Assembly (NCBI GenBank): GCA_041490525.1
Contig: JBGPTH010000001.1
Span: 44,115 to 108,114 of the forward strand
DNA length: 64,000 nucleotides
Direction: 5' to 3'
Source of the DNA: Nitrospiria bacterium
GTDB lineage: Bacteria; Nitrospirota; Nitrospiria; Nitrospirales; NS-4
This document shows positions 19,064 through 59,594 of the stretch, piece after piece; within the stretch, counting starts at the first letter, position 1; every line of letters begins with the position of its first letter. The translations under genes were made by a program, and so were the position numbers. A model generated the notes under the pieces. It saw only the letters and a program-made list of their open reading frames with translations. It did not search any database and was not told the origin of the DNA.

Positions 19064-19082
19064 AAGGAGCTGGCGCCAAGCC

Positions 19083-19102
19083 CAGTTCCACTACTCGATC
19101 TA
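19083..19102. repeat. direct repeat copy 2 (relic cysN 3' end)
   Basis: Identical 20-mer cagttccactactcgatcta. With the preceding ggcgccaagcc it would read 'GAKPQFHYSI*' if one missing base were restored. That makes it a relic of the cysN C-terminus. Confidence 0.85.
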
Positions 19103-19317
19103 GTTAGATCCAGCCGCGCACGTCAGGAAGAGCCCCGTGCTCCCGCATCGCGCACATCCTGGTATTAGAGGCGCGCTGGACGCACAAGTTCCGGTAGAGA
19201 TGTGCTCGCTTGACGGGCGCAGTTGAGGCTCGCCCTGTTGCTGTCGAAGAAGGTCGCAGATAAGAGTTTATTGGGTCGGACCTCATTTCCAGTGATCTGA
19301 TTTCTTGCCGCTCTGTT

Positions 19318-20223: not shown

Positions 20224-20238
20224 ATTGCAAGCGATAAG

Positions 20239-20475
20239 TTAGCTAAGATACTTTTTTAGCTGCTCACATGCTTCTACTGAAACAATGTGGAAGTCTGGTC
20301 CGATCTTAGCAATTAGTAGCTCAGCTTCCTGCGGTAGAAAACACTTGTGTCCTGTGACAAGCAGAATCCTCGCACTTTGTAGCTCTGGGTAATGGCGGCG
20401 AATTTGGACAAGCTCATAGAGCGCTTCCTGCGCCTTCACGCATGTGATCATCGAGTATGCACGCTGCGGGAGCAC
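20239..20475 (-). CDS. hypothetical small protein (70-78 aa) at the edge of the AT-rich islet, possibly a gene fragment
   Basis: ORF 15 nt upstream of the TIR gene on the same strand, with the same AT-rich composition. The likely ATG is at 20451 ('MITCVKAQEALYELVQIRRHYPELQSARILLVTGHKCF...'). No family recognised. Confidence 0.35.
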   Translation of the reverse strand: MLPQRAYSMITCVKAQEALYELVQIRRHYPELQSARILLVTGHKCFLPQEAELLIAKIGPDFHIVSVEACEQLKKYLS

Positions 20476-20523
20476 AGGGCTCCCCTGTTGCCGACGTGCC
20501 CATTATGATATGTTGGTTAAATT

Positions 20524-21546
20524 ATGACAACCACGATGCAGGCCCTGATCGCCAAGGTCGGGAAAGGCGAGAAAGGGGCCAAGGACCTCACCCACGAAGA
20601 GGCCAAGGAAGCCATGCGGCTTCTGCTGGAGGGCCAGGCCACCCCGACACAGCTCGGGGCGTTTCTGCTCGCAATGCGGATCAAGTCGGAGTCGGTGAGC
20701 GAGTTGGCGGCGTTCACGGCGGTGGCCCGCACGTACGTGTCTCCCCTCGCGATCCCGGCCGATCTGAAACACGTGGACCTCCCCACCTACGCCGGCAAAC
20801 GGGACAGCTGGCACGTTCTGCTGCCCGCCGCGATCGTGGCCGCGGCCGCCGGCACGACGGTCCTCCTCCATGGTTACGACGGCGTGCCGGGCCGCCTCTC
20901 GACGGCCGCCGTCGCGGCGCGTCTGGGCATCCCTGTGGATCTGCCTCCCAAGGAGGTCGCGGAGCGCGTCATCGGGACGGGGCTGGGGTACCTGGATATC
21001 GCATTGCTCCATCCCCCCGTGTACCGCATGTTGGAATTGCGGAAAGAGCTCGGCGTGCGGACCTTCTTTCAGCCGGTCGCGCGGCTCCTGAATCCCGGAC
21101 GGGCACATGCTTCCATGATCGGCATGTCCCACCCGCCCTATTTCGAGAAGATCGCCGAGGCGATGCGGATGCTGGGAACGCCCCGGGCCCTGATCCTTCG
21201 CGGGCTCGAAGGGGAGCCGGAGGTGTCCCTGAGTTCGGTCACCAAGGCCATCGAAATAAGGGACGACCGGATCACCCCTATGACCCTGCAGCCGAAAGAC
21301 TTCGGCATGGCGGTCGAGCGGGTCGAGGATCTGGCCTCCCCAGGCCTCGACGGCGAGGCCGCCCTCATCAGGAAGATCCTGAGCAACGATCTCCGGGGCA
21401 GCAGGCAGGACTGGGTCGTCATGAACGCCGCGGCGATTCTCTACGTCGGCGGGAAATTCCCCTCCCTCCGCGCCGCCGTCCCCCCGGCCCGAGAAACCTT
21501 ACAGTCCGGCGCCGCCATAAAGAAACTCCTGGAGGTCGCCCAGTAA
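20524..21546 (+). CDS. anthranilate phosphoribosyltransferase family protein (TrpD paralogue, TrpD2-like)
   Basis: 340 aa. N-terminal helical bundle 'LTHEEAKEAMRLLLEGQATPTQLGAFLLAMRIKSES' plus a glycosyltransferase-family-3 body. The canonical PRPP loop 'GTGGD' seems replaced ('PTYAGKRDS'). No trp genes are nearby. Confidence 0.65.
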   Translation: MTTTMQALIAKVGKGEKGAKDLTHEEAKEAMRLLLEGQATPTQLGAFLLAMRIKSESVSELAAFTAVARTYVSPLAIPADLKHVDLPTYAGKRDSWHVLLPAAIVAAAAGTTVLLHGYDGVPGRLSTAAVAARLGIPVDLPPKEVAERVIGTGLGYLDIALLHPPVYRMLELRKELGVRTFFQPVARLLNPGRAHASMIGMSHPPYFEKIAEAMRMLGTPRALILRGLEGEPEVSLSSVTKAIEIRDDRITPMTLQPKDFGMAVERVEDLASPGLDGEAALIRKILSNDLRGSRQDWVVMNAAAILYVGGKFPSLRAAVPPARETLQSGAAIKKLLEVAQ

Positions 21547-21548
21547 GA

Positions 21549-21584
21549 GGCCGCGAGGCGCAGGCGGGCTGCCGGATCGCGGCC
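21549..21584. terminator. stem-loop between convergent genes
   Basis: ggccgcga (21549-21556) pairs with tcgcggcc (21577-21584) around a GC-rich 20-nt loop. Lies between the TrpD-like stop (21546) and the kinase stop (21614). Confidence 0.3.
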
Positions 21585-21613
21585 CTCTTCCCGGAAGATC
21601 ACGGCTCCCCGGT

Positions 21614-24574
21614 TCATCCCCGGCCGCCGGGACCCGTTCCTTCCAACGCCTCCCCTTCCCGCGGGCGTCGCTGGGTCTTCAAGGGGTTGATGGGCAGATT
21701 CACGAAGAAGGTCGTTCCGCGGCCCACCGTGCTCTCCACTTCCACGTAGCCCCCGTGCTCCTGGACAATTTGATGGACGATGGTCAGGCCCAGACCCGTC
21801 CCCTCCCGCTCCTCGCTTTCATGCTTGGTGGAGTAGAACGGGTCGAAGATGTGGTCCAGATCATCCGGAGCGATGCCGCACCCGGTGTCCCCCACCTCGA
21901 TCTGGACCCAGGACTCGCCGGCAGGTTTGGCCAGCGGGCGCGTTTTCACGACCAGCAGGCCGCCGCCCTCTCCCATGGCATCCATGGCGTTGAGGACCAG
22001 GTTGAGAACCACCTGTTTGATCTGCTGGCGGTCCAGCATCACCCGGGGGAGGTTCCCGGCCAGGTCCTTCTCCAGAGTCACGGACTTGCTGGTGGCCTTG
22101 ACCCCGACAAAATACACGCAGGAGTCGACAAGTTCGTTGACGTTTTCTTCGGTCAACTTGGGTTCCATGTACCGGGCATAGTCCAGGATCTCCTGGATCA
22201 GTCGCTCGATACGAGCCACATCCTCAGACACCACCGAACCGAAGCGGCCGATGAAGTCGGGGTCGTCCTTGCGTTCCGGCGTGAGCTGGATGAACGTCTT
22301 GATCGAGGTCAGCGGGTTCCGCACCTCGTGGGCGAACCCCCCGGCGATGGTCTCCAAAGACCGGAGCCGATCGGTCCGTCGCATGAGCGTCTTTTGCCGC
22401 CGAACATCCTCATGCAGCAGCGCGTTATCCAGCGCGATTGCCAGATTCTGCCCGAGGGCGGAGAGCAGTTCAAGATCCTCCTCCGAGTACATCTCGCGGT
22501 TGGATTTATGCCCGAGGTTCAGGAACCCGATCACTACTTCCTTGTTCACGAGGGGAATGCACAGCTCCGATTCGATTTGGGACAGGGTATCCAGGATCCC
22601 TTTGAGCTTGACGATATCCTGGACGGGGACGGCGTCCATATTGTGTTCCAATTCCTCTCGCAGGATGGGGCCGCTCGTGTCGAACAGGAATTGGACGAAG
22701 GGAACCCTTGAGAGGATCTTGACCTCCCGCAGGCGCTTCTCATCGACTCCGTGCCCAGCCGCGAGGAAAAAATATCCCCCCTCCTTATCCAGGAGAAACA
22801 GAGAGACCTTCTTGATCCCCATCACCTTCGACAGGGTCTCCATGATCTTCGCGTTCAGGGCCTGCAGGTCCAGGATGGCGACCATGGCCTTACTGAATTC
22901 CGTGAGCGTCTCATACGCATCATAGCGTTTCTTGAACAGGGCCTTCCCGATCGCCTTTTCCATCTTTTTCTGGAGATTCGCCAGCAGGTCTGCAAGGAGA
23001 GAAAAGGTGGCGACGAGGATCCCGGCCAACACGTACTGAGTCGTCCCGGTAAACAGGAAGATGAGCAAGAGCGTGAGAAAATAAAACGAACAAATGAGCG
23101 CCAGGGGACGGGTATAGGGCAGAAACTTCCGATTGGTGAGGGTCAGGGAGATGTCCAGCAGCTGGAATTTCAAAATCGCATAGGTGACCAGGCAGGCCCA
23201 CAGGCTCACGAAGAGATAGCCCATGGGATAGGACTCGAACCCGTAATTCTGAACGAAGTCCAGGGTGGCGCCAAAGCCGAGGACGAAGGACCAGAAGATA
23301 TATTTCAGCCTCCTCGCTTCCAGGGGGGCGCTCTGTTCCCTGGCTTTATACCCCTGATGAAGCCGGTGCAACGACAACCCGCTCACCATCGCGAAATAGA
23401 TCAAAAACGAAGGATGCAGCACACCGGCTTTGGGATAGTGACCCCAGAAGTACGAATACTGGCCGTCCAGGAGATAGGTCGTCGGGACGAGCGACAGGAA
23501 CGCCGTACTGATCAGGTAACACGCCCAGATCAGCCGGTTCCCTTCCTTGAGTCGGAGCACACTGACGGTGAAATGGTAGAAAAAGGCCGGGATATAGACC
23601 ACGCCGACATACACAAATTTCCCCCAGAACAGGGCCTCCGCCGGCTCCTTGGAGGAATAGACCATGAAGAAGCCGAACAGCCAGAGGCACGCTCCCAAGC
23701 AGACCAGCCCAAAGGTAATGTGGGCCACCTCCCGTGGACTCTTGAACAGAACCCAGAGGCCGCAGGCGAAAACCAGGGTCCCGACCAAGAGAGGGGGCAT
23801 CGAAGCGAGCATGGCCCGCTCGCTGATCACGATGGCCAGGTACGCCGGCACAAAGATCAGGCCGAGGAGCACGACGTACGTCAATCCCTTGTGGAGCACC
23901 ACCGTGATGTCCATGAGACGGTAACGGACGATGGCGTACGTCATGATAATGGGATAAAACATGATGCCGAAATTTCCATACGGGTAGAAATCTATTCCGT
24001 AGATGGGCAGGTAATCCAGCGACCCCGTAAAATAGCCCAGGGAGACGGCTGCAAAGAAATATTTATACTGATTCCGTTTGAGGCCCGAGGCGAACCGGAA
24101 GAGCTTGAAGACCTGGTAATGCGCGTAGATGACAAGCCAAACCCACCATATGAAAAAGAGATGAAACAAGGCGGAGCCAGGAATCGAATAATAAAAGGAG
24201 GAGAACACGAAGCGGACCCCGCCGAAAAACCAGGGCGAGACCAGAATCAGAGGAAAGAACACCGCCCCGACCGCATAATTGACGAGGAGGAGCTTTCGTT
24301 GCCGCAGTTCGCAAAACGTCGTCACGAAGTGGAAGAAGAGAATGGGGATCCACACGACGCCGAATGCGAAGGCCACCCGCCACGCGAGGAGGGCCATGGC
24401 CTCGTCCCTCTCCAGGGCAATCCACATGCCGCCGAAGCCCCACACCGCGACCGACCCGGTAAACAGGAACCACAGCCTCTTCAGGTTGCTGGACCGGTCC
24501 GTGGAAAGGACAAAGATCCCCATGGCCAAGGAGCTGAGCCCGGTCAACAGCCCGGATAGCGCAAAGAGGTTCAT
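21614..24574 (-). CDS. sensor histidine kinase with tandem 7TM modules, GAF, HisKA, HATPase
   Basis: 986 aa. The first ~530 aa are polytopic, with two homologous modules ending 'YAIVRYRLMDITVVL' and 'YAILKFQLLDISLTL'. A GAF-like region, the H-box 'GGFAHEVRNPLTSI' and an ATPase domain ('DTGCGI', 'GTGLGL') follow. Confidence 0.85.
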   Translation of the reverse strand: MNLFALSGLLTGLSSLAMGIFVLSTDRSSNLKRLWFLFTGSVAVWGFGGMWIALERDEAMALLAWRVAFAFGVVWIPILFFHFVTTFCELRQRKLLLVNYAVGAVFFPLILVSPWFFGGVRFVFSSFYYSIPGSALFHLFFIWWVWLVIYAHYQVFKLFRFASGLKRNQYKYFFAAVSLGYFTGSLDYLPIYGIDFYPYGNFGIMFYPIIMTYAIVRYRLMDITVVLHKGLTYVVLLGLIFVPAYLAIVISERAMLASMPPLLVGTLVFACGLWVLFKSPREVAHITFGLVCLGACLWLFGFFMVYSSKEPAEALFWGKFVYVGVVYIPAFFYHFTVSVLRLKEGNRLIWACYLISTAFLSLVPTTYLLDGQYSYFWGHYPKAGVLHPSFLIYFAMVSGLSLHRLHQGYKAREQSAPLEARRLKYIFWSFVLGFGATLDFVQNYGFESYPMGYLFVSLWACLVTYAILKFQLLDISLTLTNRKFLPYTRPLALICSFYFLTLLLIFLFTGTTQYVLAGILVATFSLLADLLANLQKKMEKAIGKALFKKRYDAYETLTEFSKAMVAILDLQALNAKIMETLSKVMGIKKVSLFLLDKEGGYFFLAAGHGVDEKRLREVKILSRVPFVQFLFDTSGPILREELEHNMDAVPVQDIVKLKGILDTLSQIESELCIPLVNKEVVIGFLNLGHKSNREMYSEEDLELLSALGQNLAIALDNALLHEDVRRQKTLMRRTDRLRSLETIAGGFAHEVRNPLTSIKTFIQLTPERKDDPDFIGRFGSVVSEDVARIERLIQEILDYARYMEPKLTEENVNELVDSCVYFVGVKATSKSVTLEKDLAGNLPRVMLDRQQIKQVVLNLVLNAMDAMGEGGGLLVVKTRPLAKPAGESWVQIEVGDTGCGIAPDDLDHIFDPFYSTKHESEEREGTGLGLTIVHQIVQEHGGYVEVESTVGRGTTFFVNLPINPLKTQRRPREGEALEGTGPGGRG

Positions 24575-24685
24575 GAATCCTCTTCCAGATTTCGAACGAG
24601 GGAGGGTGTCAAGGGAGGGGCGCCGGTCGGCCCCCTACGGGCCTGGGTGAGCTGGAGGGAAAGATCAGCCGCAAGGAAATATTTA

Positions 24686-26035
24686 TTAGGCGAATGCATG
24701 CTCAGGGGCGTATGCCCAATAACATGCCTCCAACGCCCTGAACAGATACTCCAAACTCCGTTGGGCTGCATGCTCGACTTTTTGCTGCAGCTCGACGGAG
24801 GTCGCATGAAGCTTCATGACCTCGAGGGCCTGAAACGGGTGAAGGTCGTCATAGGCGGCATGGGCTTCCACCCAATAGTAGGCCTTCCTATCGAGAAACA
24901 CCCCGTCCTTGCCGTGATATTTGTCAAACCCTTTGACCATAAACGTGGCAATCCCTTGAGTCACCCCCTCGATGGCGTAATTCGTGGCAGCGATCGCCTC
25001 GACAAAGCTGCCTCGGTTGGTGACGGACCACAACCAATGCGTGAGGGCCTCAACGTCAGGAAGGATGGGGGTCGTAAACAGCTCCTCCCTGGGCACGCCA
25101 AATCCCATCGCCATGTCAATCCATTGATCGGCATGTCTCTTTTCAACACGCAGATTATCAATGAGAAAGGCCCGGGAGACCGGGTCGGGGGCTTTCGCCA
25201 GAAACGTGGCCATGAACTGAGGGAAGTACTCGATGAAGGGATAGAGCTGGATATTCCATCCCTTGACTTGCCTGAGGCTTAATTGACCTGTCGAGGTCTC
25301 TTGAAGCAATTTCGTCTGCCAGACGGCCTGCCGGTAGGGCTCGAGGCGTTGGTCCATCTCGACGACCCACACGGGATCGGGAGTGAACTTCCGGCCTCTT
25401 GTGGATTTCCTCCTCTGAAGCTTGTAGACGGAGCCTGCGGTCGGCATCGGCCCGGAGACGGAGAACACCGGACGAGGCCAGCCCCGCCGTTCAGGAGCCT
25501 CGCCGGCGATATGGGCCGCCTCGACCGCCAAATGGTCCTCGGACACACGAAGCCGGAGCACCGACTGTTCCAACGTGGAGGCATTTTCTTTGAGTTCCTG
25601 AAGCGCTGAGCTTAAAATCCTTTCTTCCCAGTTGCGCAAGCTGGCAAATTTGATACCGGCGGCATAGGGGCCGGGCGAGGCAGATCCATTTGTTGAGTGA
25701 CAAAAGACGACCTGTCCAGAAAGGTTCAGGTGACACACCTCACCAAACGAACATTGAAGGGCCAGCGGAGTGCCAACCCGCAATGCCGTGTCGCTCAGGA
25801 CCAGCAGGCCTCCTCGAGTGATATCCCGGGTACAGCCTGAGACATTTTTCTCTTGTATCTGAAGGAGGACCGGAATGCGAAGGGCGTCCCGGTCATAGCG
25901 GCGCCCTTGAGACGCAAGACGGCGACGCTCCGGTGAAAAGGCGATCATCTGAGTCCGCCGCTTCGCGATTCGCTGATCCTTACATTCGATCGAAGCGGGC
26001 ACCCTCCGCCGTTCGAAGAAGCTAGATATACTCAT
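24686..26035 (-). CDS. PilZ domain fused to a heme-oxygenase-like (iron-containing redox enzyme / CADD-PqqC-TenA fold) domain
   Basis: 449 aa. PilZ spans aa ~36-140 (nt ~25616-25930) with 'RRYDR' (RxxxR) and 'DITRGG' (DxSxxG-like). The aa ~215-445 region (nt ~24701-25393) is all-helical with carboxylate/His motifs 'PFIEYF', 'VEKRH', 'AIEGV' and 'VEAHAAYDDLH', spaced as in heme-oxygenase-like diiron enzymes. Confidence 0.6.
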   Translation of the reverse strand: MSISSFFERRRVPASIECKDQRIAKRRTQMIAFSPERRRLASQGRRYDRDALRIPVLLQIQEKNVSGCTRDITRGGLLVLSDTALRVGTPLALQCSFGEVCHLNLSGQVVFCHSTNGSASPGPYAAGIKFASLRNWEERILSSALQELKENASTLEQSVLRLRVSEDHLAVEAAHIAGEAPERRGWPRPVFSVSGPMPTAGSVYKLQRRKSTRGRKFTPDPVWVVEMDQRLEPYRQAVWQTKLLQETSTGQLSLRQVKGWNIQLYPFIEYFPQFMATFLAKAPDPVSRAFLIDNLRVEKRHADQWIDMAMGFGVPREELFTTPILPDVEALTHWLWSVTNRGSFVEAIAATNYAIEGVTQGIATFMVKGFDKYHGKDGVFLDRKAYYWVEAHAAYDDLHPFQALEVMKLHATSVELQQKVEHAAQRSLEYLFRALEACYWAYAPEHAFA

Positions 26036-26289
26036 GGCGCTCCTCCACCCCCAATATTCTACAGGGAAGGCCCGGGAACACCCTTACTGCTCTGCCGCAA
26101 CTCAGGCGGGCGCCCCCTATGCCCCCCACAGGCCGGTCCTCCCGATCCAGGCATCAGGGCCGATCAGCCCAAATGCCTGAGCCTTGGGGTAAATGTGTGA
26201 GATGTCATTATGATTAAAAGCGTAGTGGAAAGTAAAGGAGAAAATCCGGAGGCGGCAGGACAGCCCTAAACGTTAGTGATGCGGGGGGA

Positions 26290-26315
26290 GCGCTTCCCAC
26301 GGAGGCGGGAAGCGC
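26290..26315 (-). terminator. hairpin immediately after the stop of the 1,197-aa gene
   Basis: gcgcttccc (26290-26298) pairs with gggaagcgc (26307-26315) around an 8-nt loop. It lies 5 nt past the stop at 26321. No U-tract, so it could be a terminator or an RNA-stability element. Confidence 0.3.
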
Positions 26316-26320
26316 GGCGC

Positions 26321-29300
26321 TTACCTTTTTCGCTTGTCCAAATCCATCACCATGGCCGCAATGGCGCTGTGCGCGATGCCCAGCAAGATGGTGGCTTCCT
26401 CGAGGGTCAGGACTTCCTCGGGGTGGATCATGGGGTTGCGGTGCAGGAGGCGCACCTGTTCGAGCACCGCCAGGATTTTGGGGTCGGCATCGCTCCGCTT
26501 CAGGGCTCTGAGGTACGCCCCCCAGTCCCGCGAGACAGGCTTCGGACGGGTTTTCATCACGACCGTGTAGTACTCACGAATTACCGCCTCGACAGCCCTG
26601 AGAATGTGGATCCCCGCCGCAGTGGGAATGTCGAAGGCCAGGCATCGGCCTGCCTGGCGCAGATCGGCCAGTGCCTCGCCGGGAACGTTGTTCCTCACCG
26701 ACTCCGGAAGGAGGTGCTCCGCCCGCTCGATGAGGTCGGGCGTCGAATAGATGCCCTTCCGGGGGACCAGGTAGGCGTCGAGGGCCTGGGCCTCGGCGGA
26801 CAAGATCGTCTCGAACTCCCGGATGGCGTTGGTGAGGCTGAAGGCCATCCCATGGTCCAACTCCTTCTCCTGGCCTTGGGGTTCGCGGTCCTTGGGAAGA
26901 GCCCGTAAGAGTTTCGTGATCTCGGCCAGCAGTTTAAGCCCTGCCGATTTGCTCTTGACGAGCGGGACGGTGCGGTCGTTGAGGAACGACTTCAACTCGG
27001 TTTGGGCCTGGATCAGGGGCAGGAAGACCTCCCTCAGACTCGTTCCTGTTTTGATCTCGGCCAGCGGGTGCAGCGTGGCGCCCAACCGATAAAACAGATT
27101 CTCATCGACTCGTTGCATGCCCCCCCGCATCTCCGGAATGACGGCCGGTCCCCGATGTTGGGGCAGCCCTCCGCCTGTGTCAAGGGCGGGTTCACCCAGG
27201 AGGATGCGCTCGGGGCTGACCTGGACGATGCCGATCTCAGCCATCGCCTCCGGTTTCTCCACCACGGCCAGGTAGGCCTGGTTGGCGAACGTGGAATAAA
27301 TTCTGGGGGGCACCGCGCCGCTGGCGATCAGCAACTGCGCCAGTTCCTGCTGATCGAAGGCTCGAAACACCCCTTCCCCTTCAGCCCGTTTCATTTTCCC
27401 CCACACGAACAGCAACTGCCTGGCTTCCTCGGCGACCTCCGGCCGGTCCGCTTTCTGCATAAGACCCCGATAGATCGAAAAGAACTCGGCGTGGGGTTTC
27501 AGGGTGGTGATGACCATCCGTCCTTTCGGGGAGAGCACCCGCATGAGCTCCCCCAGCGTGTACGAAGGATCTTGTACATGGCCGATGACCAGGTTGCAGA
27601 TGATCCGATCGAACTGGTGGCTGCGAAAGGGCAGGGGCATGTTGAGGTCCCCGCACACCAGCGAGGCGTCCAGGACCGACGGGGGCTTGGATTCGGCAGG
27701 GACCTTGCCGCGAATGGCGGCGGCGGTCTGCGCAAGATTGAGCCGGGTCTGGATGAGCGCGCTCGAAAGAAAGTCCATCCCCACATAGCGGAGCCGTTCA
27801 GTAGGCAGAACGGGGGCCTTCCGGTGATGATACGCTTGATTGATCAAGAGGAACATGCCGAAATTTCCATGGCCGCATCCCGCATCCAGTATCCGCCCCC
27901 CCCGCTCAAGCCCCCCTGCCACCCGATAGAGGTGGTCCAGCAGTTGCCAGTACTCGGGCACATTCGCGATGGTCTGAAAGTGGTCTAGGCAGTCTCTCCA
28001 AAACTCCATCGCGTCGGCTTTCGTCAGGCGATGGCGGGCCCTGGCGCGGTCATCCTCGATCCGGATCTGGCGGCCGATCGCCCGCTGCGAGGGCTCCAGC
28101 ATGCGCCCTCCCTGGGGCAGGCGAACCCGTTCCCGGCAGCAGGCGACGAGCTGCCGGCAGAGGGCCCGCGCCTGTCTCGAACGTTCACGGAAGGGAGGGA
28201 GCACGACCGACACGTGGGGGGCGTCGATCGCTTTGGCCCGGAGGACGGCCTGGACCTCTTTTACCGATTCCAGGCGAACCCAGGGATCACGGTCTGCCGT
28301 GAAGAAGGCGACCGGGACCGCGACCTGTTCCGCATCCCGGAGGGTCGCTCGCAAATCGGAATATCCCTCCTTGATCGCATCGCCCAGGAAGCGGTCCGCA
28401 TCCACGTTCACCCCGAGGACATTGAGCACGCCGCGCCGAACCCCGCGCAGGAAGGTGATGATTAGGTCTTCCTGGTGGGCCGCCAACAAGGTGGCCTGAA
28501 GATCCACGACCCCGGCCAGAAGGATCGCCAGGTCCACCCAGGTTGTCTGCGAGACTCTCTTCAAAGCGACCCGTCCTGCCAGCCCCCTGGCCACGAGCAC
28601 GATGGGGCTGGTCGGCCACATGCCCTTCGCATAATCGATGACGGCGCCGAGGTCCTGGTTCATCCCGCTCAAGGTCGCATTCACCGCATCGCCGTCACTG
28701 TCGCCCGGGTGATTAGTGTGGTCATAGCGCAGAACCTGAAACCCATTGCTGGCCAAGTAATACGCCAGCGCGACGTACTCCCGCTTCGTCTCTCCGAACC
28801 CGGGAGCGATGATGACGAGCGGAGTACCGGGTCCGGCCCCCTCGGGGCAGTCGTGGGAGGCATCGATGCGCTGCCCGGCGGCATTCCGACATTCCCTCTG
28901 CCCGCTGGTGACCGTGACGGGCTCAGGTTCTTCGCCCAACCCTTCCCGCGACGCCAGGAAATGCCCCACCAGGGCGACGAACCTTCTCTGGCTCTCGTAG
29001 TTGGGGTGGAGAAACCGCACTCCAAAGCAGAACATGCCGGACGAGGCAAGCCCGCCGCGGTCCTGCCGGGCCGTCGGATCGGGAGCGCTCCAGACGATTT
29101 CTCCCACGACGCTCCGGTCGCCGGCCTTCTCCGGTTCGTTCACCGCCCGGGGGACCGATTGCTCCGGCCAAGGGAGATACACGAGCACACGGCGGCCAAG
29201 CAGGTCCGGCGGCATATCCATCCGCAGGCAGACGCCGGTGACGCCCAGGTTCACGGTCAGGGCCTTGAGCGGTCCGATGTCGGGGAATGCTTCGAACGGT

Positions 29301-29914
29301 TCAAAGCTGAGGGGAACGGCCAGATTGACCCGAGGCACCAGCCGACGCTCGGGCAAGTCCGTTTCTTCCGCGCCTGGAGCCTCCGGCTGGCTGGCCTCGG
29401 GAGCGACGGTGACCGGTCCGGGAGCGACGGCGTCCGGGAGAAGGGTCGTGGTCTCGGTGGGGCTCAGGACCCCGACGATCTTGACGGTAATGGCCCGCTC
29501 TCGGAGTCCTTCCAGGAGAGAGGCGAGGATCCGGGTCTTCGTCGAATCAAGAGGTTCAAACTCCACGGCAATGCCCAGTCTTGGTTTCAGGCTGGCAGCC
29601 CCCTCCGTCCCGGGGATCTCGCGGAGACTCCGAACCCTCCCTCGAATCTCCAACACCCCCGCCTCCGTCAGGAGACCCACTTGGACGGGTTGATTGTCAG
29701 TGGCCGGTCCGGCGCCATCGAAAGCCATGAAGACCCCGCCCCCGCTGATGGTCAGCGCGGTCCCGTGCCAGGAGGTTTCACGAAGGCTCAATTGGGCCTC
29801 CAGGCGAACTTCCAGGCGAGGCCACCGACGTCGTTCGGGACGCGGTCCGGGTATTTCAATTTTCGGCATAAGCGACCATCGCGGGCACACACCAAACGTT
29901 GGGAATGAGCGCAC
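26321..29914 (-). CDS. giant multidomain protein: PilZ - PilZ - LuxD-like alpha/beta fold (no nucleophile Ser) - class I SAM methyltransferase - unknown region - HEPN-like C-terminus
   Basis: 1,197-aa ORF from GTG 29914; the first ATG at 29869 gives 'MPKIEIPGP'. PilZ-1 spans aa 26-125 ('RRWPR', 'TISGGG'). PilZ-2 spans aa 188-310 ('RLVPR', 'NLGVTG'). The alpha/beta domain spans aa 340-590 ('LVIIAPGFGETKREYVALAYYLASNGFQVLRYDH', elbow 'VARGLAGRVAL'). The methyltransferase spans aa 640-885 ('ILDAGCGHGNFG', 'YVGMDF', 'LSPKGRMVITT'). The aa 1075-1190 helical domain carries 'HRNPMIH' (Rx4H). Confidence 0.7.
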   Translation of the reverse strand: MRSFPTFGVCPRWSLMPKIEIPGPRPERRRWPRLEVRLEAQLSLRETSWHGTALTISGGGVFMAFDGAGPATDNQPVQVGLLTEAGVLEIRGRVRSLREIPGTEGAASLKPRLGIAVEFEPLDSTKTRILASLLEGLRERAITVKIVGVLSPTETTTLLPDAVAPGPVTVAPEASQPEAPGAEETDLPERRLVPRVNLAVPLSFEPFEAFPDIGPLKALTVNLGVTGVCLRMDMPPDLLGRRVLVYLPWPEQSVPRAVNEPEKAGDRSVVGEIVWSAPDPTARQDRGGLASSGMFCFGVRFLHPNYESQRRFVALVGHFLASREGLGEEPEPVTVTSGQRECRNAAGQRIDASHDCPEGAGPGTPLVIIAPGFGETKREYVALAYYLASNGFQVLRYDHTNHPGDSDGDAVNATLSGMNQDLGAVIDYAKGMWPTSPIVLVARGLAGRVALKRVSQTTWVDLAILLAGVVDLQATLLAAHQEDLIITFLRGVRRGVLNVLGVNVDADRFLGDAIKEGYSDLRATLRDAEQVAVPVAFFTADRDPWVRLESVKEVQAVLRAKAIDAPHVSVVLPPFRERSRQARALCRQLVACCRERVRLPQGGRMLEPSQRAIGRQIRIEDDRARARHRLTKADAMEFWRDCLDHFQTIANVPEYWQLLDHLYRVAGGLERGGRILDAGCGHGNFGMFLLINQAYHHRKAPVLPTERLRYVGMDFLSSALIQTRLNLAQTAAAIRGKVPAESKPPSVLDASLVCGDLNMPLPFRSHQFDRIICNLVIGHVQDPSYTLGELMRVLSPKGRMVITTLKPHAEFFSIYRGLMQKADRPEVAEEARQLLFVWGKMKRAEGEGVFRAFDQQELAQLLIASGAVPPRIYSTFANQAYLAVVEKPEAMAEIGIVQVSPERILLGEPALDTGGGLPQHRGPAVIPEMRGGMQRVDENLFYRLGATLHPLAEIKTGTSLREVFLPLIQAQTELKSFLNDRTVPLVKSKSAGLKLLAEITKLLRALPKDREPQGQEKELDHGMAFSLTNAIREFETILSAEAQALDAYLVPRKGIYSTPDLIERAEHLLPESVRNNVPGEALADLRQAGRCLAFDIPTAAGIHILRAVEAVIREYYTVVMKTRPKPVSRDWGAYLRALKRSDADPKILAVLEQVRLLHRNPMIHPEEVLTLEEATILLGIAHSAIAAMVMDLDKRKR

Positions 29915-30244
29915 TCGTTCATATCACAGAGGTCGTACCTTGTCCATGGATATCCCGGCGCCGGCCGTGTGTAAATACTTGAAAAGGTAGGACATCCTTA
30001 GGGAGCGCGCGCGAGCAACTTGTGTCGGCTCCCCAGGATAGTCCAAGAGGAGCGGCTTGCTCTTCAGGGGCCCTCTGGGACCCCGTCGTGGGAGCTCATG
30101 GTCGGAAGGAAAGTTGGGGCCTCCCGGTGAAGGAGGCCGGGCAAATCTTCGTTGGTCCCGGCCACGAGAAAATTTTACTTACATTGTATCAAGGCCGTCA
30201 CATCAGGTAGGGACAGCGGTCGGTGGTCAAATAATAATTAGGTG

Positions 30245-30273
30245 TTGCAATTCATTATGGAAAAGGATATAGT
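30245..30273 (+). promoter_or_regulatory. candidate sigma-70 promoter for the REC-HD-GYP gene, overlapped by an inverted repeat
   Basis: TTGCAA (30245-30250), 17-nt spacer, TATAGT (30268-30273), about 80 nt upstream of ATG 30352. The inverted repeat GGATA-N7-TATCC (30265-30281) overlaps the -10 element. Confidence 0.4.
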
Positions 30274-30351
30274 TTCTATCCTGAGGACTGATTTGCTTAC
30301 CCGGTCCCGTCATCTGAGGGGTCTCTCCTAACCTCTTCTAAGGAGCGGACG

Positions 30352-31389
30352 ATGATTACTGATTCCGCGAAGTTGAGCATCCCCGACGAGCGCAAAGAGT
30401 CACTGGCCCGACAAGAGTCTCCCAAGCCCACCATCCTCATCGTAGAGGATGAGGCCGGCCCGCGAGAGGCCCTCAAGATGATTCTCCGGCCCTTCTTCAA
30501 TCTCTATGCGGTGGATAACGCCGAGGTCGCCTTGCAAATGCTCAAAGAGCGGCCGATCGACCTGGTCACCCTGGACCTGAAACTCCCGGCCCTGCAAGGA
30601 ACCGACCTATTACGGGAAATCAAGCGGGAGCATGAATTTGTGGAAGTGGTCATCATCACCGGGTATGGGAGCCTGCAGTCGGCCTTGGAAGGAATCCGGT
30701 GCGGGGCGGCGGCCTACCTGCTCAAGCCCTTCAACGTCACGGAACTGATCGACGTTATCAACAAGGCGCTCGAGAAAAAAAATCATCTCGACGGCTTGCG
30801 CGACACCCTCAGGACGTTCGGGAGCCTGTGGGCCACGGAACTGGATTCGACGACGGCCTGTAAGAATCTCGGGAGACTGCTCGAGGCCAAGGACCAGGAA
30901 CTGGTCCGCCATTCCCGCCGCGTCGCTTTCTACGCCTCCCTGCTGGCGGAGCACTTGGATCTGACCTCCGAGGACCGGGTGGCCCTGCAGATCGGTGCCT
31001 TTTTGCATGACATCGGGAAGGTCGGGATCGACGACCGTATCCTGATGAACCCTAGCAAGTTGAGCGACCGGGAATCCGAACTGGTCAAATGCCACCCCGA
31101 CATCGGCGCACGCATGGTGAGCACGCTGCCCTTGCCGGAAGCGGTGGCCCGGATCATCCGCCACCACCATGAGCAGTACGACGGCTCGGGCTATCCGGAC
31201 GGGTTGCAAGGCGAGGGGATCCCCTTTCTCGCCAGGATTGTCTGCCTGGCCAACGTGTTCGATAAGCTGATCACCAACCCTCCCTCCCAAGGCGCCCTGA
31301 CCATCGAAGAAGCCAGGCAATACGTGCGGCAACAGGCCGGGATCCTGTTTGACCCGAGGCTCGCTGAGCTGTTCGCGCAGGTCGTGTGA
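30352..31389 (+). CDS. response regulator with HD-GYP c-di-GMP phosphodiesterase domain (RpfG-like)
   Basis: Receiver ('ILIVEDE', 'IDLVTLDLKLP') followed by HD-GYP ('HDIGKVGI', 'HHHEQYDGSGYPDGL'). Confidence 0.9.
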   Translation: MITDSAKLSIPDERKESLARQESPKPTILIVEDEAGPREALKMILRPFFNLYAVDNAEVALQMLKERPIDLVTLDLKLPALQGTDLLREIKREHEFVEVVIITGYGSLQSALEGIRCGAAAYLLKPFNVTELIDVINKALEKKNHLDGLRDTLRTFGSLWATELDSTTACKNLGRLLEAKDQELVRHSRRVAFYASLLAEHLDLTSEDRVALQIGAFLHDIGKVGIDDRILMNPSKLSDRESELVKCHPDIGARMVSTLPLPEAVARIIRHHHEQYDGSGYPDGLQGEGIPFLARIVCLANVFDKLITNPPSQGALTIEEARQYVRQQAGILFDPRLAELFAQVV

Positions 31390-31611
31390 TGACCACGCCG
31401 GGCGGATCGTTCGCACGATAGGGCATCGGTCGTATTGCCCGCTTAGCCCTCCGCCCTACGACATAGCACCCGCGGTTTTGTAAGGGCCTCGCGCCATTCC
31501 CACCACCCCCACCACCTCCTGTGCTGGTTTGCCGCTCCGGGGACCGTTAAGGGCCCTGGCCGGTCGTCCTGACCCCGGAGCCGATGGGGGGACCGCCCTG
31601 GGAGGGTCTGC

Positions 31612-34128
31612 ATGAAAGGCCGACACGGCGACGCGAAGCGCTCTCCCGGTCCTCGCAAGGGCCGGATGGCAAAAAGCCGAACTCCTACCAAAGACCAGCT
31701 CCTCAAAGAACTGGCCGCCCTTCGAAAGCGGATGGCGGCCCTGGCCGCGTCGGAAACCCAGCAGGCCGAAGCCGCTCTCCGGACGGCCAAGGAGGAATGG
31801 GAACAGTCCTTCAACGCGCTGACGGACGATGTCTGCATCCTCGACCTTGCGGGTCTGATCCTCAGGGCCAACAAGGCCATGCGGGACCGGTTCGAGCACC
31901 TGCACGGAAACCTCATGGGCCTGGACTATCGCCTGGTGTACTACGGCACGGAGGCCCCGGACTACCATCCTCCGTGGGAGGCGGTCCTCTCGGGCGCCAG
32001 CTCCGTCGTGGTCGAACATTGGTTTCCGAAACTGGACGGGTGGTTTCAGGTCTCCTGCTATCCCCTCTACGATGTCGGGGGGAGACAATGGGGCGCCGTC
32101 TCGGTGGTCAAGGATATTACCGAGCGCAAGCGGATCGAAGAGGCCCTGCGCGACATCGCGCAACGGGCCCCCGCAGCCGGAAGCGCGGCCTTCTTCCGGT
32201 CGCTGGTCAAGCACCTGGCGAAGGCCTTGGAGGTCGATTACGCCTTCATCGCCGAGTTCACCGGCGGCGCGGGAGAGGACGTCCGCACGGTCGCGGTCTG
32301 TGCGCACGGCGAGATCAAAGAGAACTTCGTGTATCACCTGCCGGAGACCCCGGGCGCCAAGATCGTGAGCAGCAATCTGTGCTGCTACGCCAGTGGCGTC
32401 CGCCAGCAGTTTCCCAATGACCCCCTGCTGGCCGAATGGGAAGTTGAAAGTTTTATCGGCAGCCCGCTCTTCAACTCGGCCGGCCGGTCGGTGGGATTGG
32501 TCGTGGCGATGGACTCCGCACCCTTGCGCAACCGCCAGCTCGCGGAATCCATCCTGGGCGTGTTCACCGTGCGCGCGTCGGTCGAGCTGGAGCGCAAGCG
32601 GGCGGAGGAGGCCCTGCGCGACAGCGAGGAGCGGTACCGCGCCATTGCGGAAAACACGTACGATCTGATCTCGGAGACGAGCGAGACGGGCCAGTACCTC
32701 TACCTGAGCCCGAACCACAAGGATGTGCTGGGGTACGAGCCGCGCGAACTGCAGGGGCAATCCATCTTCGAGCGCGTCCATCCGGACGACCTTCCCGGGG
32801 TCCAGACGGAATTCGAGCACGGCATGAGAACCCTGAAACCGGGCCAGGCCGAATTCCGGTTGCGCACCAAGACCGGAGAGTGGCGCTGGTTTGACGGCAC
32901 CGGCAAGGCGTTTCGGACGGCGACCGGCGAGGTTCGGGCGGTCGTCGTGTCCCGGGACATCACCGACCGCAAACAGATCGAAGAGGAGCGCCTCCGCGCC
33001 AGCAAACTGGAATCCCTCGGGGTCTTCGCCGGCGGGATCGCCCATGATTTTAACAATCTCCTCGCCGCCATCATCGGCAATATCTCCCTGGCCAAGCTGT
33101 CGGTCGAACCCGGCAATGAGTTGCACAAAAGCCTGGCGGAGGCGGAAAAAGCGTCCCTCAAAGCCAAGGGGCTCACCCAGCAACTGCTCACCTTCGCCAA
33201 GGGCGGGGCGCCGGTGAAGAGGCCGACGTCGATCGGAGACTTACTGAGAGAGTCGGCCGGCTTTGCGCTGCGAGGGTCCAATGTCCGGCCCGAATTTTCG
33301 CTGCCGGACAATCTCTGGCCGGTGGAAGTCGATGAGGGCCAGATGAGCCAGGTCATCCATAACCTGGTGCTCAACGCGCAGCAGGCCATGCCGGAGGGGG
33401 GCATCATCACGATCGGGGGCGAGAACCTCACGGTCGGCGCCGACCGGGCGGAGCAGGCGCTCCCGCTCCGGGAAGGCAAGTACGTCAAGCTCGCCATCCG
33501 GGACCAGGGCAGCGGGATCGCCAAAGAACACCTGCCCAAGATCTTTGATCCGTATTTCACCACCAAACAGAAAGGCAGCGGCCTGGGCCTGGCGACCTCC
33601 TACTCCATCATCAAGAACCACGAGGGCCACATCTCGGTCGACTCGGAGGTGGGCGTGGGTACCACCTTCGTCCTCTATCTTCCGGCCTTCCCCCTCCCGC
33701 TCCCGGCTCCGGTGGAGATCGAGGAAAAACCGCGGACCGGCCGGGGGAAGATCCTGATCATGGATGACGAGGAACCCATTCGAGACCTGCTGGTGCGGAT
33801 CATGACCCATTGCGGGTACGAGGCCGAGACGGCCCGCGACGGCGCCGAAACGATCGCCCTGTATAAACAGGCCAAAGACGCCGGGCGCCCCTTCGAAGCC
33901 GTGATCATGGATTTGACCATTCCGGGCGGGATGGGCGGCAAGGACACGATCGCCAAACTGATCGAAATCGATTCTCAGGTGAAAGCCATCGTCTCGAGCG
34001 GGTACGCCCACGATCCGGTCATGGCCAACTACAAGCAATACGGGTTCAGGGGGGTGGTCGCCAAGCCCTATAAAATCACCGAACTGAGTGAAGTGCTTGA
34101 AACCGTCATCCTGGGCCGGGCCCAATAG
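31612..34128 (+). CDS. PAS-GAF-PAS hybrid sensor histidine kinase with C-terminal receiver
   Basis: 838 aa. PAS-like repeats, a GAF-like block, the H-box 'GGIAHDFNNLLAAI', an ATPase domain ('DQGSGI', 'GSGLGL') and a receiver ('ILIMDDE', 'FEAVIMDLTIPGG'). The start could be ATG 31666 instead. Confidence 0.85.
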   Translation: MKGRHGDAKRSPGPRKGRMAKSRTPTKDQLLKELAALRKRMAALAASETQQAEAALRTAKEEWEQSFNALTDDVCILDLAGLILRANKAMRDRFEHLHGNLMGLDYRLVYYGTEAPDYHPPWEAVLSGASSVVVEHWFPKLDGWFQVSCYPLYDVGGRQWGAVSVVKDITERKRIEEALRDIAQRAPAAGSAAFFRSLVKHLAKALEVDYAFIAEFTGGAGEDVRTVAVCAHGEIKENFVYHLPETPGAKIVSSNLCCYASGVRQQFPNDPLLAEWEVESFIGSPLFNSAGRSVGLVVAMDSAPLRNRQLAESILGVFTVRASVELERKRAEEALRDSEERYRAIAENTYDLISETSETGQYLYLSPNHKDVLGYEPRELQGQSIFERVHPDDLPGVQTEFEHGMRTLKPGQAEFRLRTKTGEWRWFDGTGKAFRTATGEVRAVVVSRDITDRKQIEEERLRASKLESLGVFAGGIAHDFNNLLAAIIGNISLAKLSVEPGNELHKSLAEAEKASLKAKGLTQQLLTFAKGGAPVKRPTSIGDLLRESAGFALRGSNVRPEFSLPDNLWPVEVDEGQMSQVIHNLVLNAQQAMPEGGIITIGGENLTVGADRAEQALPLREGKYVKLAIRDQGSGIAKEHLPKIFDPYFTTKQKGSGLGLATSYSIIKNHEGHISVDSEVGVGTTFVLYLPAFPLPLPAPVEIEEKPRTGRGKILIMDDEEPIRDLLVRIMTHCGYEAETARDGAETIALYKQAKDAGRPFEAVIMDLTIPGGMGGKDTIAKLIEIDSQVKAIVSSGYAHDPVMANYKQYGFRGVVAKPYKITELSEVLETVILGRAQ

Positions 34129-34145
34129 CGCCGCGAGTCGGTCCC

Positions 34146-34751
34146 TCAGGGCTTGAGCGTCACCCTCCGCATCACATCCTGCTCCTGGATCTTCCCCAGC
34201 ACCTCCAGCCCCTCCGCGACCTGCCCAAACACGGTGTACTTTCCGTCCAGGAACGGCTGGGCCTCCAAGCACAGATAAAACTGGCTGTCCGCGCTGTCCG
34301 GATCGCGGGTGCGGGCCATGCCCACTGTTCCGGCGACGTGCTTCCGTTCATTGAATTCCGCCGGGATCGTGCGCCCGGATCCCCCTGTCCCGTCGCCTGC
34401 GGGATCGCCCCCCAGGACCAGAAACCTCGGGATCACGCGGTGGAAGAGCAGGCCGTTGTAAAAACCCTTCTTCACCAGTTCGGTGAATCGGGCCACGGTC
34501 TTCGGCGCGACATCCGGGAACAGCTCGATGGTGATCTTGCCGCGGTCGGTCTCGATGAGGACTTGCGGGGAGGGTTTCGCCTGAGGGGTTCCGGAAGAGG
34601 ATCCGCCCTTCTCAGGTTTCGGGAGCGGGGCGGCGGGGAGCGGGGGGTTCTCGGCCGGCATCGCGGTTCGGGCCGACCACGGGCTCAGCACGGCCGCCAG
34701 CAGCACCAGGCAGGCCAGGCCGGTGAACCGGCTGCGCCGTGGCGGGGTCAT
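34146..34751 (-). CDS. peptidyl-prolyl cis-trans isomerase, cyclophilin type (secreted)
   Basis: Signal peptide 'GLACLVLLAAVLSPWSA'. 'FHRVIPRFLVLGGDP' and 'VGMARTRDPDSADSQFYLC' are cyclophilin motifs. Confidence 0.9.
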   Translation of the reverse strand: MTPPRRSRFTGLACLVLLAAVLSPWSARTAMPAENPPLPAAPLPKPEKGGSSSGTPQAKPSPQVLIETDRGKITIELFPDVAPKTVARFTELVKKGFYNGLLFHRVIPRFLVLGGDPAGDGTGGSGRTIPAEFNERKHVAGTVGMARTRDPDSADSQFYLCLEAQPFLDGKYTVFGQVAEGLEVLGKIQEQDVMRRVTLKP

Positions 34752-34777
34752 GGCTCGCCTCCGGCGTCCCCTGCCCC

Positions 34778-35365
34778 CTATTTCTCCACGATCGTTACGG
34801 TCATTTCAATCCGCTCGTTCGGCAAGTCATTCGCCCCGCGCGGCGCGTTGACGATCTTATCCGCCACCTCCAAACCTCGAATCACCTCCCCGAAGGCGGT
34901 GTACTGGCGGTCGAGAAAGGGAGAGTCCTTGACCACGATGAAGAACTGCGATCCGGCGCTGTCCGGATGATTGGAGCGGGCCATGGACACGATGCCGCGC
35001 TTGTGGGGCTTCTCGTTGAACTCGGCCTTCAGCTTGTGCGACGGGCCGCCCATTCCGTACTCGCTCTTCTTGTTGGGATCCTTGGTATTGGGATCCCCGC
35101 CCTGAATCATGAACCCCGGAATCACCCGGTGAAAGAGCGTCTCGTTGTAGAAGCCTGACTTGGCCAGCGTGATGAAATTCTCCATGTGCCTCGGCGCCAG
35201 CTCCGGGAAAAATTTGATCTCCATCTCGCCGAATTTGGTCTTGATGATCGCGTGGGGCTCCATTTTCCCTCCTCCGGTTGGCTTTTTGTCCTCGGCGGCA
35301 GATGCATTCCCCACGAAGGCCATGAGCAGCAACGCCAGCATGGCTAGACGGTTCTGGTATCGCAT
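34778..35365 (-). CDS. peptidyl-prolyl cis-trans isomerase, cyclophilin type (secreted), tandem paralogue
   Basis: Signal peptide 'LAMLALLLMAFVGNASA'. Motifs 'FHRVIPGFMIQGGDP' and 'VSMARSNHPDSAGSQFFIV'. Confidence 0.9.
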   Translation of the reverse strand: MRYQNRLAMLALLLMAFVGNASAAEDKKPTGGGKMEPHAIIKTKFGEMEIKFFPELAPRHMENFITLAKSGFYNETLFHRVIPGFMIQGGDPNTKDPNKKSEYGMGGPSHKLKAEFNEKPHKRGIVSMARSNHPDSAGSQFFIVVKDSPFLDRQYTAFGEVIRGLEVADKIVNAPRGANDLPNERIEMTVTIVEK

Positions 35366-53061: not shown

Positions 53062-53096
53062 GAAGTCACCTCACTTGGTTGGCAACGGAACCCGGA

Positions 53097-56938: not shown

Positions 56939-56952
56939 CGAAAGCATCTCGC

Positions 56953-57771: not shown

Positions 57772-57778
57772 GGATGCC

Positions 57779-59026: not shown

Positions 59027-59032
59027 ACCGCC

Positions 59033-59577: not shown

Positions 59578-59594
59578 TTGTGAGGAGGAGGAAA

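Follow-up and report, generated by a model that had tools for sequence, protein, structure and literature searches.

A PilZ-tagged UndA-like protein gene and a HisKA_7TM sensor kinase gene as neighbours in a c-di-GMP-related locus of Nitrospirota

The Rpf/diffusible signal factor (DSF) system of Xanthomonas (RpfF, RpfC and RpfG) combines a fatty-acid-related enzyme, a polytopic membrane kinase and a REC-HD-GYP protein that lowers cyclic di-GMP (c-di-GMP). We found the same combination in a Nitrospiria bacterium, in a locus of five genes (here A to E) at positions 21614–34128 of a 64-kb stretch of contig JBGPTH010000001.1, the whole of which is called the window below. PilZ proteins act as downstream readers in that system and are the candidate readers in this one, but here the PilZ domains are fused to the enzymes themselves, and UndA-like and LuxD-like/methyltransferase enzymes (B and A) stand in place of the crotonase-type RpfF. 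No RpfF-type crotonase was found among the five genes, among their immediate neighbours (trpD, peptidyl-prolyl isomerases (PPIases), rnc and fabF) or in the annotated related loci. The architecture of RpfC (transmembrane (TM) sensor, HisKA, HATPase, REC and HPt) was matched by neither kinase of the locus: C carries two seven-transmembrane (7TM) modules and a GAF domain without REC or HPt, and E is a soluble PAS-GAF-PAS kinase without HPt. A further difference is that an NtrC-type regulator forms part of the cassette in relatives of this locus. An earlier note on this DNA had likened the kinase–HD-GYP pair to RpfC/RpfG; the likeness is purely formal: E has no TM segment or HPt match, and RpfF is missing. 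By its domain content, the locus is thus best described as analogous to Rpf/DSF and not as a member of it.

Other described systems resemble single parts of the locus. UndA of Pseudomonas, a diiron fatty-acid decarboxylase with a heme-oxygenase-like fold that produces 1-undecene (PDB 4WWJ, 4WX0 and 6P5Q), is the best solved homologue of B in both sequence and fold, with identical ligand spacing (ExxH...E...HxxxDxxH) and a conserved Trp190, whereas B differs in its low identity (~32%), its N-terminal PilZ module with linker (215 residues) and a sensor kinase as genomic partner. For the heme-oxygenase-like diiron oxidases (HDOs) investigated so far, no protein-based effector is required (PMC13108848). 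BcsA (cellulose synthase) and Alg44 (alginate) link PilZ to a biosynthetic enzyme, by fusion or as a partner, and c-di-GMP controls catalysis post-translationally; these proteins control exopolysaccharide synthases at the membrane, whereas PilZ here is N-terminal on soluble lipid/redox enzymes. CqsA/CqsS of Vibrio and LqsA/LqsS of Legionella likewise place the synthase gene of a lipid-derived signal beside a histidine kinase with multiple TM segments, but the sensor domains of CqsS and LqsS are unrelated to those of the kinases described here, and CqsA has no c-di-GMP link. CqsA shares the alpha-oxoamine synthase superfamily with a PilZ-tagged relative described below (P0267), although the latter is much closer to other members. 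LuxD, the myristoyl-ACP acyltransferase (1THT), shares Asp211 with A; A differs in the replacement of Ser114 by Gly and of His241 by Pro, in its fusion to PilZ and methyltransferase domains and in the absence of a lux operon. The features that are new here are the PilZ-UndA-like fusion, a family of PilZ-tagged lipid enzymes, their pairing with HisKA_7TM kinases, a 7TM module specific to B-linked kinases and a degenerate LuxD copy.

The window was analysed by six-frame motif scan, Pfam, tblastn, NCBIfam and Rfam. On the minus strand, gene A (26321–29914; Pfam, alignments with LuxD 1THT and within the family) encodes a giant multidomain protein in an open reading frame (ORF) of 1197 aa, gene B (24686–26035; Pfam, profile search and an AlphaFold2 (AF2) model) a PilZ-UndA-like protein of 449 aa, and gene C (21614–24574; Pfam and hydropathy) a sensor histidine kinase of 986 aa. 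On the plus strand, gene D (30352–31389; Pfam and motif scan) encodes a REC + HD-GYP response regulator of 345 aa and gene E (31612–34128; Pfam and hydropathy) a soluble hybrid histidine kinase of 838 aa. The ORF list and Pfam reproduced the coordinates, domains and gaps (285, 111 and 437 nt) given for these five ORFs in the earlier note. The last of these values stands as an ORF gap only: gene callers gave A a length of 1156 or 1182 aa, and its start is most likely ATG 29869 (1182 aa), not GTG 29914, so the non-coding spacer between A and D is ~482 nt (29870–30351). The identical B protein was present on 6 contigs, of which 5 are listed (one JGI metagenome, one NCBI metagenome-assembled genome (MAG), GCA_041498675.1, and three Logan runs), and homologues numbered at least 210 for B and at least 125 for A; A and B are therefore considered real genes. 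All five proteins stayed below the cut-offs of the NCBIfam models.

Pfam matched B to PilZ (E 3e-8) and to Haem_oxygenas_2/TENA (E 3e-12). Reading along the minus strand, B begins with a module of an Arg-rich leader, PilZ and a helix (residues 1–180; Pfam and alignment), in which PilZ occupies residues 44–141 (nt 25613–25906) with the motifs RRYDR and DITRGG, the latter with Thr for Ser relative to (D/N)xSxxG. A disordered linker (residues 181–214) leads to the heme-oxygenase-like diiron domain (residues 220–439, nt 24719–25378; Pfam and profile search). A profile of 18 B homologues searched against PDB matched UndA (4WWJ, 6P5Q and 3OQL) at E ~2e-44, CADD at 1.5e-9 and PqqC at 2e-4, and the window sequence alone matched UndA at E ~2e-31. 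Identification as PqqC (the JGI name), CADD or TenA was rejected, UndA being better by 35 orders of magnitude. The AF2 model had a mean predicted local distance difference test (pLDDT) value of 76, with ~90 in the helical domain and 84–90 in the PilZ barrel, and Foldseek returned UndA/3OQL as its top PDB matches with template-modelling scores, TM(target), of 0.79–0.83. The metal ligands E298, H301, E356, H392, D396 and H399 align with E101, H104, E159, H194, D198 and H201 of UndA and were invariant across the 18 family members, as was W388, which corresponds to UndA Trp190; the chemistry of UndA, its 3His/3carboxylate ligand set and W190 have been described (PMC13108848). Among full-length B homologues, 101 of 114 had the UndA-type ligand pattern. 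These features place B in the UndA branch of the HDOs, with a 215-residue N-terminal extension. [quoted passage not shown] Nearly all B homologues share the PilZ + HDO architecture, and those in GTDB species representatives belong almost exclusively to Nitrospirota.

The conserved unit became evident from a comparison of neighbourhoods, which covered 26 species-level loci encoding B relatives and several metagenome loci, with the window proteins mapped by tblastn. A C homologue followed B on the same strand in about 22 of the 26 species-level loci, and also in L033–L035. Most exceptions were sequences ending at or just past B; in L014 the C homologue lies upstream of B in divergent orientation, in L030 it lies ~7 kb downstream, and tblastn detected none in L025 or L031. 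Gene A stands upstream of B in L007, L008, L011, L022 and L024, and in L011 six genes (A, B, C, an NtrC-type regulator gene, D and E) are all colinear. The L037 locus contains A, a 7TM kinase, NtrC, D and E, the last two at ~70% identity; L036 and L037 share the order of an A-family gene, a single-7TM-GAF kinase, NtrC, REC-HD-GYP and sometimes a PAS hybrid kinase. A PilZ-module enzyme directly upstream of a HisKA_7TM-GAF kinase was found in the window (A-B-C), in L006–L035, in L036–L039 and in L043–L045. The conserved unit is therefore the gene of a PilZ-tagged enzyme with a downstream HisKA_7TM-GAF kinase, not the set of five genes, which the earlier note had presented as one self-contained module. 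Of that idea, the B–C pair was retained as said, with D/E in a minority of loci (L011, L015, L033, L036 and L037), and functional linkage of the genes gained support from L011 and L037; self-containment failed, since the window has no cyclase and lacks the NtrC partner of its relatives. The cassette is almost confined to Nitrospirota, its hosts being nearly all MAGs of Nitrospirales/Nitrospiraceae.

The N-terminal module of B also occurs on other enzymes. In an exhaustive profile search of representatives, B residues 5–180 matched many proteins with different C-termini (E 1e-30 to 1e-62; dozens at E<1e-30); a word-indexed search with the module alignment as query retrieved 3 proteins. The module consists of the Arg-rich leader, the PilZ barrel, a helix, a strand and a second helix, and R45 and R49 (RxxxR) and G76 were invariant in the module alignment (A3). 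In a sample of 10 proteins from the exhaustive search scanned with Pfam, the module was joined to ketoacyl-ACP synthase (KAS) I/II (P0255), KAS III (P0264 and P0269), a class I/II aminotransferase (P0267 and P0304), an acyl carrier protein (ACP; P0289), HMG-CoA reductase (P0332) and a LuxD-methyltransferase (P0277), and two of the ten had no recognised C-terminal domain. The catalytic domain of P0267 is an alpha-oxoamine synthase, with E 1e-87 to 1e-89 against 8-amino-7-oxononanoate synthase (AONS), 2-amino-3-ketobutyrate CoA ligase (KBL) and bacterial serine palmitoyltransferase (SPT), and 1e-34 against CqsA. Literature searches for PilZ fusions with UndA, HDO or ketoacyl enzymes returned nothing relevant, and neither of two PilZ censuses nor a 2026 HDO review (PMC13108848) mention PilZ-HDO or PilZ-lipid-enzyme fusions.

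In all the neighbourhoods examined for these other fusions, the enzymes stand directly upstream of a HisKA_7TM kinase: PilZ-ACP, a reductase and a ketoacyl synthase (KS) in L039, the PilZ-alpha-oxoamine synthase in L043, PilZ-KS and an ACP-thioesterase in L044, and an A-like gene followed by PilZ-HMG-CoA reductase in L045. From the order in L045, the interval that separates A from the kinase serves as a slot for the UndA-like enzyme or, alternatively, for HMG-CoA reductase. L039/L040 and L044, on Nitrospirota MAG contigs of which L040 is assigned to Nitrospiria, occupy the same chromosomal position, after gyrB-gyrA-dciA-smpB, and have orthologous 7TM kinases (56% identity); the enzyme sets at this site differ by lineage, with PilZ-ACP + reductase + KS in one and PilZ-KS + ACP-thioesterase in the other. 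This suggests that the enzyme part is exchanged like a cassette at the site. Near the cassette of L036 (Nitrospira sp. Nam74, OZ224220.1), a gene at 21809–23125 encodes FeeM/Acetyltransf_5 with a cyclic-nucleotide (cNMP)-binding domain; it is N-acyl amino acid synthase-like and another candidate for a nucleotide-gated acyl enzyme.

Pfam analysis of C gave two HisKA_7TM matches, GAF, HisKA and HATPase. On the minus strand, 7TM module a (residues 1–259, nt 23798–24574) and module b (residues 262–479, nt 23138–23791), both also seen by hydropathy, make up a membrane sensor of 14 helices, followed by GAF (residues 569–717, nt 22424–22870; Pfam) and HisKA/HATPase (residues 744–962, nt 21689–22345; H-box FAHEVRNPL). 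Where A-family genes stand alone, the next gene encodes a kinase with one 7TM module, and the single-7TM kinase of L037 aligns to C 262–986 at 48% identity. Module a was present in every B-linked kinase, where it is the best-conserved part (57–77% identity), and was missing from the kinases linked to other enzymes in the related loci compared. That module a tracks B points to co-evolution of enzyme and sensor. The kinase core of C is most like AtoS/ZraS, kinases that partner NtrC-family regulators, which fits the NtrC partner found in relatives. Identification of C as the PEP-CTERM kinase PrsK was rejected, with 136 bits against a cut-off of 300, over the GAF-histidine kinase part only.

Gene A showed Pfam matches to PilZ (E 3e-14), LuxD-type Acyl_transf_2 (E 1e-24) and S-adenosylmethionine (SAM) methyltransferase (E 4e-13). 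Its domains, all on the minus strand, are PilZ-1 (ORF residues 27–134, nt 29513–29836; Pfam) with the signature RRRWPR + TISGGG (Thr for D/N), a PilZ-2-like domain (ORF residues ~191–316, nt 28967–29344) with RRLVPR + NLGVTG (Gly for Ser), a LuxD-like alpha/beta-hydrolase (residues 367–561, nt 28232–28816), a class I SAM methyltransferase (residues 660–866, nt 27317–27937; Pfam) with an intact motif I (LDAGCGHGNFG) and a helical C-terminal domain (residues 900–1197) with a weak DUF4145 match. Three PilZ domains had been claimed for the locus; those of B and PilZ-1 of A were matched by Pfam, whereas the third scored 20.3 bits against a Pfam cut-off of 22.5; it corresponds in alignment to the second PilZ that relatives conserve. 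For residues 365–559, LuxD 1THT was the best solved homologue (E 3e-17); the NCBIfam LuxD model gave 85.7 bits against a cut-off of 420. Alignment with 1THT showed Gly at Ser114 (ARGLAGR vs AASLSAR) and a retained Asp211, and the family consensus ATSLAGR / EALHRLxENP has become ARGLAGR / VLPPFRERS in the window copy; with Ser114 and His241 lost, acyltransferase activity of this domain should not be taken for granted.

Members of the A family with a named source all come from Nitrospirota. The invariant core of the family is the LuxD-like alpha/beta-hydrolase fused to the SAM methyltransferase, preceded by one or two PilZ domains, by REC, PAS or kinase-like N-termini, or by nothing; in the family alignment, the helical C-terminal domain was limited to the window A and two relatives. 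The Ser-Asp-His triad is intact in most members, as is the SAM motif. A rough motif count at the nucleophile position gave S 71, D 12, N 10 and G 10 of 105, so about one third of the family has Asp, Asn or Gly for Ser with the methyltransferase motifs intact. Either repeated pseudo-enzyme evolution or a changed mechanism may underlie these replacements. A BioC/BioH-like pair was rejected as an identity of A (BioC models 25 bits, cut-off 185).

D matched REC (E 7.5e-23) and HD_5 (E 2.3e-35) in Pfam and contains the motifs TLDLKLP, HDIGK, GSGYP and HHEQYDGSGYPDG, which mark it as a predicted canonical HD-GYP c-di-GMP phosphodiesterase response regulator of the RpfG-like kind; its orthologues in L011, L015 and L037 are 62–71% identical. 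E has the Pfam domain order PAS, weak GAF, PAS, HisKA, HATPase and REC, with no TM segment by hydropathy and no HPt match in Pfam, and its orthologues in L011 and L037 are 69–70% identical. An NtrC-type sigma-54 regulator gene directly follows the kinase in L011, L015, L033, L036 and L037, the first four copies being 62–81% identical to that of L037; the D orthologue comes next in these loci, followed by E in L011 and L037. In the window, the D-E pair is inverted relative to L011. No NtrC gene was found after the kinase in the window, and tblastn revealed no remnant in the locus; a decayed ntrC was rejected, the only matches being to the REC of D and to the distant PilR. PilR (48787–50145), 45% identical and beside a PilS-like kinase, is the only NtrC homologue of the window. 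It belongs to a type IV pilus block on the minus strand (48727–54938) that comprises a PilS-like 6TM-PAS kinase, PilR, PilC (T2SSF) and a PilB-type ATPase with an N-terminal MshEN domain. MshEN is a c-di-GMP-binding domain type in other bacteria, so the window may contain candidate c-di-GMP readers besides its PilZ domains. The six-frame scan of the whole 64-kb window found no GG[DE]EF or EAL-type motif, in agreement with the earlier claim that it holds no cyclase or EAL gene.

The observed gene content, domain identities, intact UndA-type ligands and synteny are best read, tentatively, as a c-di-GMP-gated cassette of a lipid product and a sensor kinase with HD-GYP feedback. As for substrate and product, we infer that B would act on a free fatty acid, by oxidative decarboxylation or another oxidation, and release a hydrophobic product, for example a 1-alkene. 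The cue of C would then be the product or substrate of B, detected by the 7TM modules within the membrane, and phosphoryl groups would flow to response regulators, which in relatives are the NtrC-type activator and REC-HD-GYP. D, receiving its phosphoryl group in this way, would hydrolyse c-di-GMP, and the soluble E would provide D with a second, cytoplasmic input. Binding of c-di-GMP to the PilZ modules of A and B could in turn tune enzyme output, closing a feedback loop between a lipid cue and the second messenger. There are precedents for a lipid-related signal: Pseudomonas fluorescens uses 1-undecene as an intraspecific signal (PMC10614000), and Leptospirillum, also of Nitrospirota, has an rpfFCG fatty-acid signalling cluster with HD-GYP (PMC8357829). 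The speculation that a lipid-derived signal operates here is strengthened by the UndA-like nature of B and by the occurrence of its PilZ module on other acyl/lipid enzymes. The window stacks two PilZ-tagged enzymes (A and B) before a kinase with two 7TM modules. A wider version is rather unlikely: that Nitrospirota carry interchangeable synthase-receptor cassettes, in which a c-di-GMP-gated enzyme (an UndA-like alkene synthase, LuxD-like/methyltransferase, KS/ACP, SPT-like enzyme or HMG-CoA reductase) makes the cue for a HisKA_7TM kinase, with HD-GYP feeding back through PilZ.

Several observations weigh against the feedback cassette. At only ~32% identity to UndA, B could differ in both substrate and reaction, the LuxD domain of the window A is catalytically degenerate by alignment with 1THT and with its family, and both PilZ signatures of A deviate. 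Apart from the window, an adjacent D gene was seen in just 3 of ~15 informative B loci, and 12 B-C loci with enough downstream DNA show no nearby NtrC or D. No response regulator gene lies beside C in the window, where D-E occupy the opposite strand, so a coupling of C to D is conjecture; the window also lacks a cyclase, and our literature search for a ligand of any HisKA_7TM domain returned only census papers. The other fusions (KS, ACP, SPT-like and HMG-CoA reductase) resemble bulk or specialised lipid synthesis more than signal synthesis, which bears on a further explanation, that the locus serves membrane-lipid remodelling or homeostasis by a DesK/DesR-like logic. The kinase would sense a membrane property with no diffusible signal, and the PilZ-tagged enzymes would build olefinic, sphingolipid-like or isoprenoid lipids, tied to biofilm state by c-di-GMP. 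We consider this somewhat unlikely. The presence of the module on lipid-building enzymes (KAS I/II, KAS III, ACP, the SPT-like alpha-oxoamine synthase and HMG-CoA reductase), the mini-pathways of L039 and L044 (ACP, reductase or thioesterase, and KS, not one synthase) and the very large membrane-embedded sensor of the kinase all speak for it. However, a separate kinase paralogue lies next to each type of enzyme and the extra 7TM module tracks B specifically, which suggests chemical and not purely physical sensing; the sole characterised UndA chemistry yields a volatile hydrocarbon and not a membrane lipid (PMC13108848), and an HD-GYP output is unnecessary for simple homeostasis.

The variation at the A-family nucleophile bears on another possibility, that the PilZ-tagged proteins act as trigger enzymes or co-sensors that dock on the adjacent 7TM-GAF kinase and report fatty-acid or acyl availability (enzyme domain) and c-di-GMP (PilZ), thereby altering the activity of the kinase directly, with catalysis secondary or dispensable. 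Besides the loss of Ser in about one third of the family, the window A has lost Ser and His while its ORF is still intact, with the identical B on the five listed contigs; the enzyme-then-kinase order is tight, with gaps that are often very short, and a conserved helix after the PilZ barrel is a partner-binding element of PilZ proteins (10.1101/814665). The invariant catalytic ligands of B and the Ser-Asp-His triad and SAM motif retained by most A-family members argue for catalysis instead, and we judge the co-sensor role improbable. The position of D and E on the opposite strand with promoter-like sites of their own, the lack of an HD-GYP gene within 7–10 kb of most B-C loci, the missing cyclase and the flanks (trpD, PPIases, rnc and fab), which are not conserved neighbours, would fit a looser arrangement in which A, B-C and D-E are separate signalling units, mere neighbours whose PilZ domains read the global c-di-GMP pool. 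Set against this, five loci (L011, L015, L033, L036 and L037) combine a 7TM kinase and NtrC with a D orthologue and with A-family or B genes, and E recurs in L011 and L037 at ~70% identity, in otherwise unrelated flanks; separate units are accordingly quite doubtful.

c-di-GMP is a gate for exopolysaccharide synthases, motility and transcription; no description of the present cassette arrangement, or of post-translational control of fatty-acid/lipid enzymes by a fused PilZ, was found in the literature. If PilZ gates an UndA-type oxidase, an effector-based regulatory mode would be added to the HDO superfamily, and hydrocarbon or lipid production would be tied to the biofilm switch; the locus may connect a bacterial second messenger with the remodelling of lipids or with signalling by lipid-derived compounds. 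Should interchangeable cassettes exist, nitrifying bacteria would possess a new type of cell-cell or self-signalling circuit, HisKA_7TM sensors would gain their first ligand class, and a heme-oxygenase-like diiron enzyme gated by a second messenger would be known for the first time. The tight enzyme–kinase pairing offers a concrete route to the ligands of the HisKA_7TM sensor family. Nitrospirota is the phylum of the nitrite oxidiser Nitrospira, and the locus may bear on nitrifier aggregation and wastewater treatment.

Scanning of the A/D spacer revealed sigma-70-like hexamer pairs at 30201–30172 in the minus direction and at 30210–30238 and 30245–30273 in the plus direction. The 285-nt gap between A and B (26036–26320) contains one sigma-70-like site on the minus strand (26236–26207; consensus match only), which is compatible with B-C being a transcription unit apart from A. 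Sigma-54 (-24/-12) promoters, expected because relatives carry the NtrC partner, were not found in the intergenic regions of the locus, and window-wide matches were below chance. A regulatory RNA in the spacers was rejected, there being no Rfam match at E<=1 over 19000–36000. A GC dip at 22–26 kb of the window raised the idea of a possible horizontally acquired island; the low overall GC of C, whose GC content at third codon positions (GC3) is 0.79, is attributable to its TM-rich composition, and no mobility genes were seen. B alone was mildly atypical, with GC3 of 0.66 against 0.78–0.85 in all neighbouring genes, and may have been acquired later or be subject to another codon pressure.

The locus is flanked by cysI/H/D/NC and trpD on one side and by two cyclophilin genes, rnc, fabF, fabD, fabH and plsX on the other. 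The window flanks (trpD, PPIases, rnc and fab) were conserved in none of the related loci, and a functional meaning of the fab operon adjacency was rejected because no related locus keeps it. Between a DUF3175 gene and trpD lies a pair of minus-strand ORFs, a TIR-domain ORF of 108 aa (19318–19644; Pfam TIR_2 1e-9, with weak similarity to the C-terminal end of a retron-TIR anti-phage protein) and an unannotated ORF of 163–179 aa (19684–20223). Gene calls for both exist on the JGI and Logan contigs but are missing from the NCBI MAG contig, and the pair may be a fragment of a defence gene. On the plus strand, upstream of cysH/cysD-like and cysNC genes, a sulfite/nitrite reductase gene (12943–15393) combines two NIR_SIR and ferredoxin-like half-domains with a C-terminal TusA sulfurtransferase domain. 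At 56012–60482 (plus strand), two successive pairs each consist of a PALP-family gene (cysteine synthase/threonine synthase-like) followed by a ThiF-family E1-like gene, and may represent duplicated sulfur-carrier-dependent biosynthesis modules.

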